A stretch of DNA of 24,000 nucleotides from an archaeon (GTDB lineage: Archaea; AGJL01; Methanococci; Methanococcales; Methanocaldococcaceae). The notes beneath the pieces were generated by a model. The model saw nothing but the letters and a program-made list of their open reading frames with translations. It ran no database searches and had not been told where the DNA came from. The position numbers were made by a program, and so were the translations under genes. The stretch lies in contig JAJRSC010000005.1 in the NCBI GenBank assembly GCA_024278985.1, positions 40,188-64,187 on the forward strand. The letters run 5' to 3'. Numbering within the stretch: the stretch's first letter is position 1; each line of letters opens with the position of its first letter. Shown piece after piece: positions 2,055-17,521 of this stretch.

Positions 2055-2983
2055 AATAGTTCCTTTCTAAGTTCTCCTAAGGTAGTATTTATTTCAGCAA
2101 AAGCATTATGCCTATGAATACTCTCAAAATTTATCTGTTTTATATGAACTTTTGTTTCATCTGGTAGATGGTTGAATTTTTTAACAATTCTGTTTGCCAT
2201 TTCCCTAACACAATCCTCTACAAATTTAGGGTTAGTATGGCTTTTTTTAACAACATATGCCTCATCTACTCTCTTCAATATTCCATAAATTTCTGCACTC
2301 ATTGAATTTTTTATTATATTAATAATATCTAAAATCTCAACATAATAATCTTCTGGAATTTCAAGAATTATTTTTCCAATTCCTCTTTGGTTGTGGGTTG
2401 CAAAAATAACACTATCCAATATTTTTAAAATATCCTCATCACTAAATCCTTTATTTTTTAAATTTTCAATACATATTTCTTTTATTAAGTTCTGAGCACA
2501 TGGGCATGCAGTTATTCCAACAACTTCTGCTCCTACTATTTTAGTAATCTTTAAATTATCATTTTCTTTAATTCCTTTAGCCCCTCCAATTATTTTATGA
2601 ACTTCTTGAGAGATTTTTTTTGAGATTGGACTCTTTTCTTCTAACATAAAATCACTAATCATTAACACCTCAGCCCTATTTGCATATTCATGTTTCTTAA
2701 ACAATCTTTTAACAATTTCCTCACATATTGTTTCCATTTCATAACTCTCCATTTTTAATGCTTCATCAATTATTTCCTCTATAACTTCTGGATGCCTTGA
2801 CATATGTATTCCTTTTTGGGAACTTGGTAAATTAACAGAAACATCAAAGGTTGGAAGTAATATTATAGGTCTTTTTCCATTTCTTTTTATTCTAACAAGT
2901 TTTTTTAAATTAGATATACCAACCTTTGTTAAGGATATTTTTATATCTGGTTCTATATTTTGTATATCACATTTCCAATTCAT
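2051..2983 (-). CDS. mptA: GTP cyclohydrolase MptA (FolE2/MptA family, methanopterin biosynthesis)
   Basis: 310 aa with the family hallmarks QKGIHMSR and ITACPCAQ. Methanogen genomic context. Confidence 0.85.
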   Translation of the reverse strand: MNWKCDIQNIEPDIKISLTKVGISNLKKLVRIKRNGKRPIILLPTFDVSVNLPSSQKGIHMSRHPEVIEEIIDEALKMESYEMETICEEIVKRLFKKHEYANRAEVLMISDFMLEEKSPISKKISQEVHKIIGGAKGIKENDNLKITKIVGAEVVGITACPCAQNLIKEICIENLKNKGFSDEDILKILDSVIFATHNQRGIGKIILEIPEDYYVEILDIINIIKNSMSAEIYGILKRVDEAYVVKKSHTNPKFVEDCVREMANRIVKKFNHLPDETKVHIKQINFESIHRHNAFAEINTTLGELRKELL

Positions 2984-4196
2984 TTTTATCCCCTAATAAA
3001 ACATCAATTAACTCTCTTGATAGTCTATAATAAACATTGTTTCCTTTTCTTTCTTTATAAATATATCCCATTTCATAAATATCTGAAAGATGTGTTCCAA
3101 TAGTTCCAGGAGATTTTTTTAAATATTCTGAAAGTTGTGTTACTGTTGTACTACCTCCAAGTTTTGCCATAGCCTTAACAATTTCAGATTGAGCAGGAGT
3201 TAAATGGTTTAAAATCTGATGTCCAATACTTATTCCCAAAGAATGTATTGCTTCACTAACAATTTTCTCATCTATTTTATTTAAGTTCTTTTTTATAGCT
3301 ATTGATATAGATTCTGAACATGTCATTATTATTTTTCTTGGTATCCCATCACATAATTCAACAATTTTATCAATTGCCTCTCTAGTAAATGGTTCAAATT
3401 CTTCAGCCCCTTCTATATGAGCATCTTCTAATCTTCTCCTAATTAAGTCATATGATTCTTCTGTTGAAAGAGGAGGCATATTTATAATCTTTGGAATTCT
3501 ATCCTTTATAGGTGGAGATATTTTAGTTAGGTCTTCCATCAATGTTGGAGAACCTGCTAAGAATGTTAATATTCCTTCTTCATATAAAAAAGAATGGAAA
3601 AATTGTAAGAGTGATAAACAACTTTTCTTAGCAAATTGGTCAGCTTCATCTATTAAGATTATACATAATTTATTCCTATCTTTAACTTCATTAATTAAAA
3701 ATTCTAAATCCCTCTCTATTCTCTCTCTTGGATAATGTATAGGAACTTTATCTCCATAGTTGTTTAATTTTTTGTACATATCAATTATTTTAGAGGAATA
3801 CTCCAAATAATCAGATTTTATTGTTCCATTTATTGTAAATAAATTTTCTGTTAAAATATTGTATAGTAATTGGATTAAAAACTGTCTTGGAGTTATTTGT
3901 GATGCTGTAAGTTCTACGACCCAATGACCTTGTTTTTTTGTAGCATAGTATATAATATTAAGCATTGAACTTTTACCAATTCCTTTAGTTCCTACAATTG
4001 CTGCATTGGCAACACTACCATGCATTGCTGACCCTAAAATTTCTCCAATTTCTCTTAACTCACTAACCCTTCCAACAAAAAATTTTGTGTTTCCTCTAAT
4101 AGGCTTTTCTGAAAATGGATTATACTTTAATTTAAGTTTATGCATAGTGTTTGTTATCGACCTTGCCGATTCTTGTATAAATTCAATTGGGTCCAT
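2967..4196 (-). CDS. Highly divergent Orc1/Cdc6-like AAA+ ATPase with C-terminal winged helix
   Basis: 409 aa. Canonical Walker A GTKGIGKSS and Walker B CIILIDEADQF. Lid-like GIPRKIIMTCSESISIAI in the position of GDAR-AIDLL. C-terminal wHTH (TVTQLSEYLKKSPGTIGTHLSDIYEMGYIYKERKGNNVYYRLS). GGTGAG Shine-Dalgarno 4 nt before the ATG. Faces a 620-bp AT-rich gap. Confidence 0.6.
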   Translation of the reverse strand: MDPIEFIQESARSITNTMHKLKLKYNPFSEKPIRGNTKFFVGRVSELREIGEILGSAMHGSVANAAIVGTKGIGKSSMLNIIYYATKKQGHWVVELTASQITPRQFLIQLLYNILTENLFTINGTIKSDYLEYSSKIIDMYKKLNNYGDKVPIHYPRERIERDLEFLINEVKDRNKLCIILIDEADQFAKKSCLSLLQFFHSFLYEEGILTFLAGSPTLMEDLTKISPPIKDRIPKIINMPPLSTEESYDLIRRRLEDAHIEGAEEFEPFTREAIDKIVELCDGIPRKIIMTCSESISIAIKKNLNKIDEKIVSEAIHSLGISIGHQILNHLTPAQSEIVKAMAKLGGSTTVTQLSEYLKKSPGTIGTHLSDIYEMGYIYKERKGNNVYYRLSRELIDVLLGDKNELEM

Positions 4197-4680: not shown

Positions 4681-4829
4681 ATTAACATAGTAATAAAAAT
4701 CCATAAATTTATGATAGTAAATTATAATATGAATCTAAAGGTATTTATATGATAAAAAGAAAAAATAATTGAGCAACTGTAAAGATAAAATATAAAATTT
4801 TATTAAAAAAATAAAAATTGGTGATTAAT

Positions 4830-5357
4830 ATGGAAAGATTGCCATATGAGGTCGTATCAACTATATTCAGAAAAGCCATTTTACACTATTTAGTAATAAC
4901 CGGACAAGTATTTCCTACAAAATTATCCAAAGATTTGGGTATATCAAAAGGACTCTCATCAGGGTTTTTAAGACTATGTAACGCTTTAGGTGTAGTAAAA
5001 AGAGAAAGAAACAAACATAAAGTTTTATATTCACTAACGGGTAAAGGAGTGGCAGTTTTAAAAAGATTAGCGCCCGAAATATTTGATTTAAGTTTTAGTG
5101 AGGTTTTCGAAACACTTTCGAAAAGTAAGTTTTCTACTAAACATTACCCATTAGCCAAGTTAGGATTTAGAATAGAGTATGAAGAAGATAACTTCAAGGG
5201 AGTGACTTTTTACTTTTATGACTATGATAACAACCTTTTAGGAACGGTATATAGGAATTCTCAGAATATTTGGTGGTGTAGTATATGTAAAAAAGAGGCA
5301 TGTAAGCATATCGATTACGCCAAAAAGCTATATAATAAATTGAAAAATATAAATTAA
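4830..5357 (+). CDS. Winged-helix DNA-binding protein with C-terminal SWIM-like zinc finger, function unknown
   Basis: GGTGAT Shine-Dalgarno 4 nt before ATG 4830 (the track's TTG at 4818 is less likely). wHTH-like segment PTKLSKDLGISKGLSSGFLRLCNALGVVKRERNKHKVLYSLTGKG. C-terminal WWCSICKKEACKHIDYAKKLY shows a CxxC-x4-CxH pattern. 175 codons without a stop in very AT-rich DNA. Confidence 0.6.
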   Translation: MERLPYEVVSTIFRKAILHYLVITGQVFPTKLSKDLGISKGLSSGFLRLCNALGVVKRERNKHKVLYSLTGKGVAVLKRLAPEIFDLSFSEVFETLSKSKFSTKHYPLAKLGFRIEYEEDNFKGVTFYFYDYDNNLLGTVYRNSQNIWWCSICKKEACKHIDYAKKLYNKLKNIN

Positions 5358-5360
5358 TAA

Positions 5361-5393
5361 TTTTCGAGTTTTCGAGTTGCATGTATGTATATG
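5361..5393. repeat. Left arm of a 33-bp inverted repeat (TTTTCGAGTTTTCGAGTTGCATGTATGTATATG)
   Basis: Its reverse complement matches 5705-5737 at 32 of 33 positions. Begins 3 nt after the stop of the wHTH-SWIM gene. Confidence 0.9.
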
Positions 5394-5704
5394 CCACGGT
5401 TGTGTATATAGAAAATTTTTAGAAAAAAATTATCACAAAAATTTTAGGCAGTAGTATGCTCTTTTTTAGTTTAGATAATACAGTATTTTAGAGATTTTAT
5501 AAAAATGTCAACAAATATTTTTTTGTTTTTGTGAAAAATAATAATTTGACATTATTATATTTTATAATTTTTATTTTATTTTATTTTTTTAATTTAACAA
5601 ATAAATTTTTTATAAAATTCTTTTATTGTACAAAAACAAAAATTAATAAAAAATTTTTGTTGTGATAATTTTGGTTTATGTGTTTTGTATATCTTTCCCT
5701 TAAC
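5394..5704. other. 311-bp ultra-AT-rich core between the inverted repeats (DUE-like)
   Basis: I count 10 G/C in 5521-5640 (120 nt). There is an uninterrupted 47-nt A/T tract at 5551-5597. Inner imperfect inverted repeat aaattatcacaaaaatttt / aaaatttttgttgtgataattt. 8-bp inverted repeat AATGTCAA/TTGACATT. No ORF. Confidence 0.6.
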
Positions 5705-5737
5705 CATATACATACATGCAATTCGAAAACTCGAAAA
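5705..5737. repeat. Right arm of the 33-bp inverted repeat (CATATACATACATGCAATTCGAAAACTCGAAAA)
   Basis: One mismatch to the left arm, at 5722 (T versus C). Contains a tandem TCGAAAAC x2. Confidence 0.9.
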
Positions 5738-5840: not shown

Positions 5841-6197
5841 CTATATATCACTCGAAAACTCGAAAATACAGCAGTCTAACAGAAATAGTGATATAAAAGA
5901 ATTGTATTTATTTTTTTTGTATTTCCTCAATAATTCTATAAACTTAGGAGTATTTTTTTTCTTTAATTTAAACCTAATCTTACCTCTAACTTTGTATTTT
6001 GCTAAAATACCCATATTACATAAATCATTTAAGTATTTATATAGTGTTATATATTTAAAATCTACTTTGTTATAAATATCTTCAATTTTAAAACTTTTTA
6101 GTTTAATAACTATTTCAACAAGCTTTTTATATTTTCTATCAACTATGTAGGGAAGTATTTTAAGCCATGGAATTTTTAATTCTCTAATTGTTTTTAA
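5841..6197 (-). other. In-frame continuation after the TAG stop of the upstream ORF, encoding a winged-helix domain (split gene, pseudogene or readthrough)
   Basis: My reverse translation directly after TAG 6200-6198 gives LKTIRELKIPWLKILPYIVDRKYKKLVEIVIKLKSFKIEDIYNKVDFKYITLYKYLNDLCNMGILAKYKVRGKIRFKLKKKNTPKFIELLRKYKK...SSDI*. That is 118 sense codons with no stop in DNA that appears very A/T-rich by eye. There is no ATG/GTG/TTG before residue 62. Confidence 0.55.
5849..5868. repeat. Additional direct copy of the CTCGAAAACTCGAAAA core
   Basis: cactcgaaaactcgaaaata. The core at 5851-5866 is identical to 5730-5737 plus the preceding unit. It is enclosed by a perfect 9-bp inverted repeat, TATATCACT (5844-5852) and AGTGATATA (5887-5895). 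Confidence 0.8.
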
Positions 6198-6878
6198 CTA
6201 CCTTTTACAGTGTTTTAATATTATTTCAATTACTTCTAAATTACCATTTGTTATATTATAAAGATGTTCTGCTACTTTTCTACTAATACAATAGCCAAGT
6301 TTTTTAGCAAAGTATCTAATAACTCCAATAATATTTATTATTCCTTCAGGAAAATGTTTTAAAACTTCTTTATGGCACTCTATAGGATACCTTAGAACAA
6401 CACTTATATTATTTTTTCTTAGTTCTTTAACAAATCTTATAAAACTCTTTTTATAGTTCCATTTTCTAATGTCATGAATATCCAAAACAATAATTGGATT
6501 TATTGATTTTAATATAGCTAATAACTTACCTCTAACTTTATAAAAATCCCAATTTTTGATATTGATAAAAAACTCCTTTATAGCCTTAAACCATGCCTTT
6601 TTAGCTCTATAATGTTTTTTAAAATATTTTTTTTCTACAATATAATTAAATAAATTTTCAAACCATCCAGAATTTTTATTAACTAAATAATATTTATCTT
6701 TTAATAAAAATGCTAATCTTAAAATTATCTTTTTAATGTTTGGAGTTCCCAATACTCTAAATATTGGAAATTTGTTAAAATAAAATTCACCACCCTCCTC
6801 TAAAATATTCTCTCTATGAGTTGGAAATAAATATAATCCATTAAAAAATTCTTCAGGTATATCTTTAATTATCATCAT
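6198..6878 (-). CDS. Degenerate AAA+ (Orc1/Cdc6-like fold) protein lacking intact ATPase motifs; ends at a TAG followed by an in-frame WH domain
   Basis: 226 aa. P-loop position reads VLGTPNIKK (lysine kept, glycines lost). Walker-B position reads PIIVLDIHD (no DE). Lid or sensor-2 position reads NITNGNLEVIEIIL (compare GDAR-AIDLL; arginine lost). The ATGATG start overlaps the cbiL stop by 14 nt. Confidence 0.5.
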   Translation of the reverse strand: MMIIKDIPEEFFNGLYLFPTHRENILEEGGEFYFNKFPIFRVLGTPNIKKIILRLAFLLKDKYYLVNKNSGWFENLFNYIVEKKYFKKHYRAKKAWFKAIKEFFINIKNWDFYKVRGKLLAILKSINPIIVLDIHDIRKWNYKKSFIRFVKELRKNNISVVLRYPIECHKEVLKHFPEGIINIIGVIRYFAKKLGYCISRKVAEHLYNITNGNLEVIEIILKHCKR

Positions 6879-7548
6879 CTTTAATCCTTTTAATTATTGC
6901 TATAGAGAGATAGTCAGAAAATTCATCAAAATTTATATTGTCTATGTTCCCAATAGCTATTTTTTCATCTTCAAATGTAGCCCTTTTAACTAATCCAACA
7001 ATTATATTTTTATTATTGATTTTTTTTAATACATCTTTTAAGTTTTTTGTTTTCATTACTATTATAGTATCAAAATCATTAATATACTTTTCAATATCTT
7101 TACCATGTGGTAAAATACATAATTTTTCATTACCCTCTACTAATGGCATATTTAATGCTTTAGCAGCTGAAAATATGGATGAGATTCCATTTATTATTTC
7201 AACTTTAACCCCTTTTTTTGCTAAAATTTTCCAAATATATGAGAAAGTACTATATAAAGTAGGGTCTCCAAGAGTTAGAACAGCAACATCTTTATTTTCT
7301 TTTAAAATTTTTTCAGCTGCTTTTTCCCTATAATATTTTAATTTTTCTTTATATTTAATCATAGGAAATAGAAGTGTTTCAACTTCTTTATCTTTAATAT
7401 AATCCTTAACAATTTCATAGGCAACTGATGGTTTTCCTTCTTTTGATATTGGAACAAATATTTTATCAACTTTTTTTAATATATTTAAAGATTTTAGGGT
7501 TATTAATTCTTTATCTCCTGGTCCTACTCCAATACCATAAACAATCAT
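6865..7548 (-). CDS. cbiL: Cobalt-factor II / precorrin-2 C20-methyltransferase
   Basis: 227 aa. MIVYGIGVGPGDKELITLKS is the tetrapyrrole methylase N-terminal motif, followed by VLTLGDPTLYSTF. AGGGAT Shine-Dalgarno. Confidence 0.8.
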   Translation of the reverse strand: MIVYGIGVGPGDKELITLKSLNILKKVDKIFVPISKEGKPSVAYEIVKDYIKDKEVETLLFPMIKYKEKLKYYREKAAEKILKENKDVAVLTLGDPTLYSTFSYIWKILAKKGVKVEIINGISSIFSAAKALNMPLVEGNEKLCILPHGKDIEKYINDFDTIIVMKTKNLKDVLKKINNKNIIVGLVKRATFEDEKIAIGNIDNINFDEFSDYLSIAIIKRIKDDDN

Positions 7549-13178: not shown

Positions 13179-13920
13179 CGTTTCCCTCTAATTTTCTTAG
13201 ATTTTTAATAACCTCTAAAATTCCCTCAATAGTGTATTTCTTAGGAATCAGTGGTTTAAAGCCAAAATCTTTAATAACTTTGGCAGTTATTGGACCAATA
13301 GCAACAATATAATTATTCTTTATAATATTGGTAAAATCCTCATCAACATATTTAAAAAAGTTTTTTGCAGTTAATCCACTTGTAAAAGTTAAAATAAATC
13401 TTTTATCTTTTAATTCTTCTTTTAATTTGTTAATTTTTTCCTTTAAATTTTCTGGCTCAACAGATTTATATACAAACACCAAATCAGCATTTAAGTTATT
13501 TTTTAAAATATCCCTTGTTGATGGTGTTGTAGGAATTAAAAATTTTTCATTACTTTTAGCAACTTTTTTAATCTCCTCTAAGAGAGAGTCAGCAGTGTAT
13601 TCTTTTGGAATTATATCTGGTTCTCTACCAAAATATTTTTTAAAAGTTTTTGCTGTTTTTTCTCCAATAACTGCAATTTTTTTATTTTTTATTATTTCTT
13701 TTTGATTCTTATTTATTATGTTATATAATCCAATAACTCCACTTGGTGATGTAAAAACTACCCAATCATAGTTATTTAAACTAACTTCTACATTTTTGTT
13801 ATAAATAAGTTTTAAAGTTGGAAATATTACTGGCTCAAAGTTCTCTTTTTTTAATAACTCTGCAAATGTTTTAGCTCTCTCTATAGGTCTTGTTATAATA
13901 ACTTTCATAATATATCCCAT
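13171..13920 (-). CDS. hemD: Uroporphyrinogen-III synthase
   Basis: 249 aa. KVIITRP...FPTLKL...WVVFTSPSGV is the two-lobed HemD pattern. An alternative start at ATG 13908 (MKVIITRP) is equally plausible. Confidence 0.75.
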   Translation of the reverse strand: MGYIMKVIITRPIERAKTFAELLKKENFEPVIFPTLKLIYNKNVEVSLNNYDWVVFTSPSGVIGLYNIINKNQKEIIKNKKIAVIGEKTAKTFKKYFGREPDIIPKEYTADSLLEEIKKVAKSNEKFLIPTTPSTRDILKNNLNADLVFVYKSVEPENLKEKINKLKEELKDKRFILTFTSGLTAKNFFKYVDEDFTNIIKNNYIVAIGPITAKVIKDFGFKPLIPKKYTIEGILEVIKNLRKLEGNDD

Positions 13921-16850: not shown

Positions 16851-17521
16851 GCAGTCACCCCACTAACATGTTGTTGTTTATCTTCTGATCCAAATAAGTC
16901 TGGTCTTACTTTTTTTACATACCAAACGACTACAGCAGTAACAACAGCTGCTGCAGGACCTGCAGTTACTAAATGAGCAAACGCCATTGCAGGTACTGAA
17001 ACGGTAAATGGATATGGACAGTAACCTGGTTCTATAAATGGTTGTAATCCAAATTCAAATCCTGCACATATAGCCGCTGTAACGATACCAACATAAGCCC
17101 CAATACCACTTGCAATAATATCTCCAACATATTTTCTTAAAAACTTATAAACATAATAACCAACAAATGGTAAAACAACTCCCATATTGAAACAGTTAGC
17201 TCCAATACAGGTAATTCCTCCATCTCCAAAGAATATTGCTTGTATAACTAAAACAATAGATATGGCAATAGTTGCAATCCATGGATTGTCCATTAATATT
17301 GCTATTAAAGTTCCACCAACCATATGTGCAGTAGTTCCATCTGGAACTGGAAGGTTAAACATCATAACTAAGAAAGCAAATGCTGTTAAAACTCCAAGTA
17401 ATGGTAATTTTCTTGGATCTAATTTTTTGAGTTCTAATATACTTTTATACCATATTGGTATCATTATTAAATAGAAAAAAGCACAGGTTATAGGCCCAAG
17501 ATAGCCATCTGGTATGTGCAT
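16847..17521 (-). CDS. cbiM: ECF substrate-capture component, CbiM/NikM family (Co or Ni)
   Basis: 224 aa. N-terminal MHIPDGYL, with the essential Met1-His2 metal-binding N-terminus. His66 lies in TTAHMVGG. GAGGTGA Shine-Dalgarno 7 nt upstream. Confidence 0.85.
   Translation of the reverse strand: MHIPDGYLGPITCAFFYLIMIPIWYKSILELKKLDPRKLPLLGVLTAFAFLVMMFNLPVPDGTTAHMVGGTLIAILMDNPWIATIAISIVLVIQAIFFGDGGITCIGANCFNMGVVLPFVGYYVYKFLRKYVGDIIASGIGAYVGIVTAAICAGFEFGLQPFIEPGYCPYPFTVSVPAMAFAHLVTAGPAAAVVTAVVVWYVKKVRPDLFGSEDKQQHVSGVTA

Follow-up and report, generated by a model that had tools for sequence, protein, structure and literature searches.

The window analysed here, a stretch of 24,000 nucleotides from a draft genome of an archaeon of the Methanocaldococcaceae, carries a gene that is interrupted by an in-frame TAG and that, by sequence comparison, is this species' orthologue of MJ0772 from Methanocaldococcus jannaschii. 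Window numbering is used throughout, and the coordinates of all features are collected in Table 1. The gene and its upstream neighbour cbiL are both encoded on the minus strand. Between the gene and that for Mc-pRIP, the MJ0774 orthologue, lie an inverted-repeat module, an MJ0773-like gene and a repeat-rich gap upstream of Mc-pRIP. This intervening region has been predicted in silico to be oriC (PMC3531139, PMC4009838, bioRxiv 10.64898/2026.08.15.744077). The Methanococcales have no recognisable Orc1/Cdc6, their origin is without an experimental map, and Mc-pRIP is the sole proposed initiator (PMC3984812, PMC5333045, PMC4009838). The start of replication is a long-standing gap in this order. 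The MJ0772 family is itself uncharacterised, is central to the open question of initiation and represents a concrete second candidate. While the split of the gene is most likely an artefact, it is the origin context that makes it interesting.

An earlier note, made from the sequence alone, had described a 226-aa open reading frame (ORF) that closes at the TAG and is followed, in the same frame, by 118 sense codons in very A/T-rich DNA without a usable start codon before residue 62. The frame could be reproduced in every detail. It starts with an ATG at 6878 and, past the TAG, stays open until a second TAG is reached. The 354 nt of the continuation have a G+C content of 21%, and the first in-frame ATG, GTG or TTG is codon 62 (the M in CNMGIL). 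Only one of 200,000 shuffles of this continuation was free of in-frame stops, so that the open frame is not due to chance; the other five frames hold 2 to 21 stops. The 14-nt overlap between the gene start and cbiL, also described in the earlier note, is located at 6865-6878.

Orthologues of the interrupted gene

The two pieces had been considered to be, or to have been, a single gene, and the orthologues leave little room for another view, as all 29 of them are uninterrupted (341-374 aa). Full-length proteins from Methanocaldococcus and Methanotorris, 343-356 aa long, align with the read-through product at E-values of 1e-85 to 1e-139. These include MJ0772 itself (Q58182), which, like its orthologues, is 56-67% identical to the read-through product and covers 97-100% of it (E-values from 1e-113 to 1e-139). 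When 40 related genomes were searched in six frames, the gene was found in 29, each copy being one unbroken frame, and the stop occurs only in the window copy. With the window's own assembly counted, the family has matches in 30 of 41 genomes. It was seen only in the Methanococcales: a profile search against 1.84 billion representatives retrieved solely members from this order and generic winged helices. Sequence identity within the family is 37-67% across the order, compared to 68-92% for Mc-pRIP, and the MJ0772 family thus evolves much faster.

Alignment of the orthologues, which the earlier note had proposed as a check, reveals a sense codon at the TAG column in all 29 cases and a conserved downstream part. 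Glu (GAG or GAA) is the residue in 18 of them, followed by Asp (6), Asn (3), Thr (1) and Ile (1); from GAG, the TAG is reached by one G>T step. In the alignment of 30 sequences, the downstream part is among the best-conserved regions of the family. It comprises the linker KRxLKxLRELKIPWLKILP and the invariant residues T278, Y280, Y282, L286 and K294, the first three of which belong to the recognition helix. The continuation in the window retains 24 of the 26 columns with at least 80% family conservation.

The search for a second sequence of this species gave no further copy. The 225-aa product forms a cluster of one, no other encoding contig was found, and an exact pattern that runs across the TAG and leaves its first base open as N had no match in metagenome contigs. 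One other family record ends early, the 244-aa draft record P0015 from Methanocaldococcus villosus, which stops inside the same linker (…IPWLKILHI). Genome G002 (L016:1501-2523) encodes the full 341 aa and is identical to P0015 over the shared N-terminal part.

Nature of the in-frame TAG

The window belongs to a 1.1-Mb draft assembly of 30 contigs which is 86% complete. We scanned this assembly for long ORFs that end with a single stop and are followed by a long open continuation without an early start codon. The last filter was added because adjacent genes in the same frame had swamped the unfiltered scan. Besides the target, five clearly coding genes were found to be interrupted by a stop: class I lysyl-tRNA synthetase (LysRS), dihydroxy-acid dehydratase (IlvD), topoisomerase I (TopA), prefoldin alpha (PfdA) and a Csm3-like RAMP gene. 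Four of the five (LysRS, IlvD, TopA and PfdA) were checked for copy number, and there is one copy of each in the assembly. The stops in LysRS, IlvD and TopA are spanned by single Pfam domains, and the examined relatives of all five genes are uninterrupted at the respective positions. Two further candidates from the scan are located at C18:57523-58410 (minus strand, TGA) and C23:40367-41557 (minus strand, TAA).

In each of the five genes, and in six of six when the target is included, the stop replaces a Glu (GAA or GAG) that is present in most or all relatives. Under uniform mutation, and with the codon usage of this genome, 15% of stop-creating single substitutions hit a Glu codon, which gives p ~1e-5 for six of six. 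When substitutions are restricted to G>T and C>A, about 58% are expected at Glu, as calculated arithmetically from the shares of the substitution paths. G>T changes are a classic damage or low-coverage artefact. As a cell with a truncated version of its sole LysRS would not be viable, scattered G>T errors in the consensus are the simplest reading, and the Glu-to-stop lesions in LysRS and the other genes render the in-frame stops of this assembly unreliable as biological evidence.

The earlier note had left three explanations for the TAG side by side: a sequencing error, a recent nonsense mutation, or readthrough of the stop. Among these, sequencing or assembly error is best supported and readthrough least. 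Most probably, the TAG at codon 227 arose through a G>T error in the draft consensus which turned GAG (Glu) into TAG. The overall reading, in which the organism most likely makes the full-length protein and the TAG is such an error or, at the outside, a lesion of very recent date, is given a probability of about 0.6 (about 0.6-0.65 for a sequence error or an effectively intact gene). Several observations weigh against this view. At the TAG column, Asn (AAT) is found in the closest relatives, and the ancestral codon is thus not certain. Radical G>T changes are not obviously over-represented among the missense changes of the six genes, in a test of low power as only about 0.6 extra errors are expected. 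Finally, lineage-specific changes were counted by taking G008 as sister and the remaining Methanocaldococcus as outgroup. The C-terminal part has 15 changes unique to the window compared to 5 unique to the sister, while the numbers for the N-terminal part are 13 and 22 (Fisher p 0.011). A mild lineage-specific acceleration of this kind in the C-terminal part would be in keeping with somewhat relaxed constraint following a real truncation.

The alternative is that the TAG is a real and recent nonsense mutation, which leaves either a 226-aa protein without winged helix or a pseudogene at an early stage. It is in line with this alternative that the C-terminal part, and not the N-terminal part, evolved faster in this lineage than in the sister, and that the ratio of C-terminal to N-terminal identity is 1.05, compared to 1.19 ± 0.09 in comparable pairs. 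However, 9 of the 15 changes unique to the window are conservative and the continuation has acquired neither a second stop nor an indel, so that any relaxation must be slight. In addition, the sequence keeps 24 of the 26 conserved columns and has lost none of the invariant DNA-binding residues, and identical Glu-to-stop lesions occur in indispensable genes of the same assembly, such as the single LysRS. We regard a real nonsense mutation as less likely than an error, but as the more serious of the competing explanations.

Far less probable is that the TAG and TAA codons in the six genes are decoded, be it by programmed readthrough, as pyrrolysine or by a Glu-inserting suppressor, so that short and long isoforms are produced. 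A Glu suppressor would indeed predict that all six stops are found at majority-Glu positions, but G>T substitution accounts for this bias in a simpler way. Aragorn detected no CUA or UUA anticodon among 23 tRNAs, and PylS (TIGR02367) had no match above the cut-off, both with the reservation that the assembly is 86% complete. TAA is involved as well as TAG, and these codons terminate 65% and 13% of the long ORFs, respectively. Furthermore, the stop is shared by none of the 29 target orthologues, and the stops in the other genes are not shared by any of their relatives. The TAG is not a programmed readthrough site. More generally, split genes of this draft should not be taken as cases of recoding or as pseudogenes without support from the reads.

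Protein architecture

The full-length protein of about 345 aa (about 40 kDa) consists of an orphan alpha/beta domain, a three-helix lid-like bundle, a conserved basic linker and an ArsR-type winged helix. It was modelled by AlphaFold2 with a confidence score (predicted local distance difference test, pLDDT) of 86 for the full length and of 89.7 for the N-terminal part alone. The model starts with an N-terminal hairpin, followed by a strand-loop-helix unit at the "P-loop", three helices, and a strand which ends in D-x-H-D. It continues with helix-strand-helix, after which the three-helix bundle, the linker and the winged helix are reached. The N-terminal motifs are a degenerate P-loop-like G44-T-P-N-I-K-K-I51, a Walker-B-like strand IIVLDIHD and the lid-like bundle at 183-223.

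The earlier note had interpreted the gene product as a catalytically degenerate Orc-like AAA+ protein. The strings on which this was based (VLGTPNIKK, IVLDIHD, NGNLEVIEIIL and the winged-helix stretch) are all present. According to the model, the motifs are also positioned as had been proposed: the P-loop string corresponds to strand 38-44, a loop and helix 48-59, the Walker B string to strand 129-134 with the HD following, and the sensor-2 or lid string to the start of the last helix in the three-helix bundle. The assignment of the continuation to a winged helix was equally correct. Foldseek relates it with probability 1.0 to ArsR/TFE/MarR domains (SrnR, AntR, TFE-alpha and Fur DNA-binding domains; TMt 0.5-0.65), and at the sequence level there are weak matches to TrmB and SoFic_C (E 0.004-0.02).

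Membership in Orc1/Cdc6 or AAA+ did not hold up at the sequence level. The N-terminal domain has no profile match in Pfam, NCBIfam (E up to 1-10) or the PDB, and a Pfam scan of the individual family members returned weak Hda_lid matches in only 2 of 30. When the family was compared by hhalign to 30 true Orc1/Cdc6 proteins, the probability stayed below 1% (0.5% for the full length, 0.3% for the N-terminal part). The same test with Mc-pRIP, which served as positive control, gave a probability of 94% (E 1e-7) over 274 columns with Walker A aligned. Between the MJ0772 family and Mc-pRIP, the winged helices alone can be aligned (E 6e-4, probability 29%). The family consensus at the P-loop position is [AG][TS]P[NS][LIV][KS]K[TM], with a near-invariant Lys but with the Walker A glycines missing. 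The Walker-B-like consensus is hhhh[DE]xH[DN] and not hhhhDE, and there is no sensor-2 Arg at the start of the NGNL helix.

Fold comparisons point to P-loop NTPases, in all cases without reaching significance. For the whole model, the top Foldseek matches are human ORC5 and ORC4 and ORC1 from A. pernix (E 0.008-0.016, TM score at most 0.25), and clamp-loader delta (1jqj) and Apaf-1 are also found (E 0.008-0.03, TM score at most 0.25). For the N-terminal domain alone, all matches are P-loop NTPases (ECF and ABC ATPases, RdrA, DnaA, RFC, delta and ORC2), but with E-values of 0.04 or worse, probabilities below 0.4 and TM scores of at most 0.3. Searching a viral fold library resulted in weak matches to an AAA ATPase and to a haloviral plasmid-replication protein. 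From the predicted structure, the N-terminal domain would be a P-loop-NTPase-like and probably non-catalytic alpha/beta domain in an Orc-like domain order. The likeness to Orc/Cdc6 is in domain order only, and membership of the protein in that family is not demonstrable.

Gene order and possible function

The earlier note had pointed to the arrangement of the gene with the Orc-like Mc-pRIP gene around repeat-rich A/T regions. This block is conserved: in 27 genomes from Methanocaldococcus, Methanotorris, Methanothermococcus and Methanococcus, target and Mc-pRIP are encoded on the same strand, 1.6-2.1 kb apart. Of 29 orthologous loci, 26 have an MJ0773-like gene in the same place, and the box pairs are conserved at orthologous loci. 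The coupling to cbiL, to which attention had also been drawn, is real but specific to Methanocaldococcus. There, cbiL is the upstream gene in all 16 loci, while in the other genera an MCM gene is found directly upstream on the same strand, with a gap of 6-130 nt (13 of 14 loci). The order mcm-MJ0772-repeats-MJ0773-repeats-Mc-pRIP-mptA-ATP-grasp-tfe-HD looks ancestral, with cbiL standing where MCM would be in Methanocaldococcus. In the Methanocaldococcus genomes G008 and G013 the island is broken between MJ0773 and Mc-pRIP, and the segment with cbiL, MJ0772, inverted repeat and MJ0773 is intact. As Mc-pRIP of G008 is also without its downstream mptA operon, the rearrangements in these two genomes differ.

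MJ0772 is absent from G017, G020, G031 and G033 (genus g2), four small and nearly complete Methanococcales genomes in which Mc-pRIP, the box motif and a canonical Orc1/Cdc6 are missing as well. This co-occurrence is only supportive, because related genomes are not independent and because adjacency inflates co-occurrence. These four genomes encode a single MCM (about 50% identical), and in G017 (L105 10706-12730) the stretch of about 2 kb behind the MCM gene contains no ORF of at least 150 aa. In Methanococcus maripaludis the MJ0772 orthologue is CAF29587 (Q6M186), probably MMP0031 judging by the numbering, and its MCM neighbour appears to be MMP0030. A review lists MMP0030 as the sole essential MCM of that species (PMC3984812), and an MCM close to a Cdc6-like gene in M. 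maripaludis was described by Berthon et al. (PMC2643942). No mention of MJ0772 or MMP0031 was found in the literature searched.

Table 1. Features of the window and loci used for comparison. Features without contig or locus prefix are in window numbering.
Feature	Position	Strand	Support or remark
N-terminal part of the MJ0772-family gene, 226 codons	6198..6878	-	ORF calling, orthologues, AlphaFold2 model
In-frame TAG, codon 227	6198..6200	-	boundary between lid-like bundle and conserved basic linker
118-codon continuation: linker (LKTIRELKIPWLKILP), ArsR-type winged helix (about residues 238-305), low-confidence tail	5844..6197	-	
True stop (TAG) of the full-length gene	5841..5843	-	C-termini of Methanocaldococcus orthologues agree (...FEFSxxI)
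Third tandem TTTTCGAG box copy	5850..5867	-	inside last codons of target (I-F-E-F-S-S)
33-nt inverted repeat (5361-5393, 5705-5737) around 311 nt of about 18% G+C	5361..5737	.	between convergent 3' ends of target and MJ0773-like gene
MJ0773-like winged-helix protein, 179 aa, convergent with target	4818..5357	+	weak winged-helix Pfam matches
Mc-pRIP (MJ0774 orthologue), divergent Orc1/Cdc6-like AAA+ with ArsR helix-turn-helix (HTH)	2967..4196	-	Pfam ATPase_2, AAA_16, HTH_5
cbiL, upstream gene, 14-nt overlap with target start	6865..7548	-	ORF map
LysRS (class I), in-frame TAA	C18:53987-55582, near 54385	+	Glu in most relatives
IlvD, in-frame TAG	C14:6434-8107, near 6860	-	Glu in most relatives
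TopA, in-frame TAA	C10:2464-4506, near 3199	+	Glu in most relatives
PfdA, in-frame TAA	C6:13488-13904, near 13566	+	Glu in most relatives
Csm3-like RAMP gene, in-frame TAA	C12:17097-17834, near 17406	+	Glu in most relatives
MCM upstream of MJ0772 orthologue	L094 9997-12087; L095 9421-11469	-	
MCM upstream of MJ0772 orthologue	L096 4527-6539; L097 4195-6201	+	
Split-island loci, G008 and G013	L090 (G008:C1:860000-869000), L091		
Split-island loci, G008 and G013 (continued)	L092 (G013:C1:101000-110000), L093		

Within the window, the TTTTCGAG box has 3 matches, compared to 0.01 expected. One of them is inside the target gene itself, a placement which is the same in G001 and G013. The TTTTCGAGTTTTCGAG box within the last MJ0772 codons, which encodes the conserved F-E-F-S, was also located at L004 1502-1515 and L012 2518-2531. 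Conservation of the C-terminal FEFS may reflect a constraint on the origin box at the DNA level rather than conservation of the protein. Mc-pRIP matches TIGR02928 with an E-value of 6e-10.

From this genomic context we infer an origin-factor function for the MJ0772 family, which as an origin-associated DNA-binding factor would cooperate with Mc-pRIP and with the MCM helicase at the origin predicted for the Methanococcales. The full-length protein of about 40 kDa would use its winged helix to bind DNA in or close to the TTTTCGAG repeats, and the inactive, ATPase-shaped domain would be a module for protein-protein interaction with Mc-pRIP and/or MCM. As a non-catalytic partner, it might contribute to recognition of the TTTTCGAG repeat module or help in the recruitment of MCM. 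In its most specific form, and at clearly less than even odds, the proposal is that the family may be the missing second component of initiation: a winged-helix pseudo-ATPase and Mc-pRIP partner, recognising the TTTTCGAG inverted-repeat module and loading or positioning the essential MCM with which it is co-transcribed. If this is true, initiation in the Methanococcales would depend on a two-protein ORC-like assembly which evolved independently of the canonical pairs of Orc1/Cdc6 paralogues. The family is order-wide, is found in an apparent operon with an MCM of essential type and is fixed to a conserved inverted-repeat module, and M. maripaludis, which is open to genetic work, allows the hypothesis to be tested.

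Two points weigh against such a role. Origin activity of the region is without experimental demonstration (PMC5333045). In addition, the family is publicly annotated as transcriptional regulator or as ArsR family member, and on context alone this is a serious, though less likely, alternative. The protein would then be an ordinary ligand-sensing regulator in which an N-terminal sensor domain and the winged helix control neighbouring genes (mcm, cbiL or Mc-pRIP, for example), without taking part directly in origin firing. It would be consistent with the generic ArsR/MarR type of the winged helix and with an N-terminal domain that has neither an ATPase signature nor Orc homology. However, the gene and the repeat module are located between convergent 3' ends and not at a promoter. 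The linkage to MCM, inverted-repeat module and Mc-pRIP has been kept across four genera, and a genome has either all three of the gene, Mc-pRIP and the box motif or none of them.

Among the systems available for comparison, the truncated draft record P0015 resembles the split gene itself. Both end early in the same linker, but P0015 has an apparent frameshift where the window has a substitution to a stop. With Mc-pRIP (MJ0774) and archaeal Orc1/Cdc6, the MJ0772 family shares an alpha/beta domain, a helical lid and a winged helix at the C-terminus in the same order, as well as a gene position adjoining the predicted origin, and its winged helix is ArsR-like as in Mc-pRIP. It differs from Orc1/Cdc6 in having ATPNLKKT or GTPNIKKI in place of the Walker A motif GxxGxGK[ST]. 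Non-catalytic AAA+-like subunits, such as eukaryotic ORC subunits without ATP hydrolysis and the delta subunit of the E. coli clamp loader, provided the top Foldseek matches of the whole model. They are also similar in concept, being ATPase-shaped subunits which have lost catalysis and act as structural partners, but with matches below significance homology is unproven. Finally, WhiP from oriC3 of Sulfolobus (PMC3607249, PMC5333045) is likewise a lineage-restricted, non-Orc winged-helix protein that is encoded beside the origin which it presumably serves. While WhiP is made up of winged-helix domains and is related to Cdt1, the MJ0772 family combines one winged helix with an orphan alpha/beta domain.

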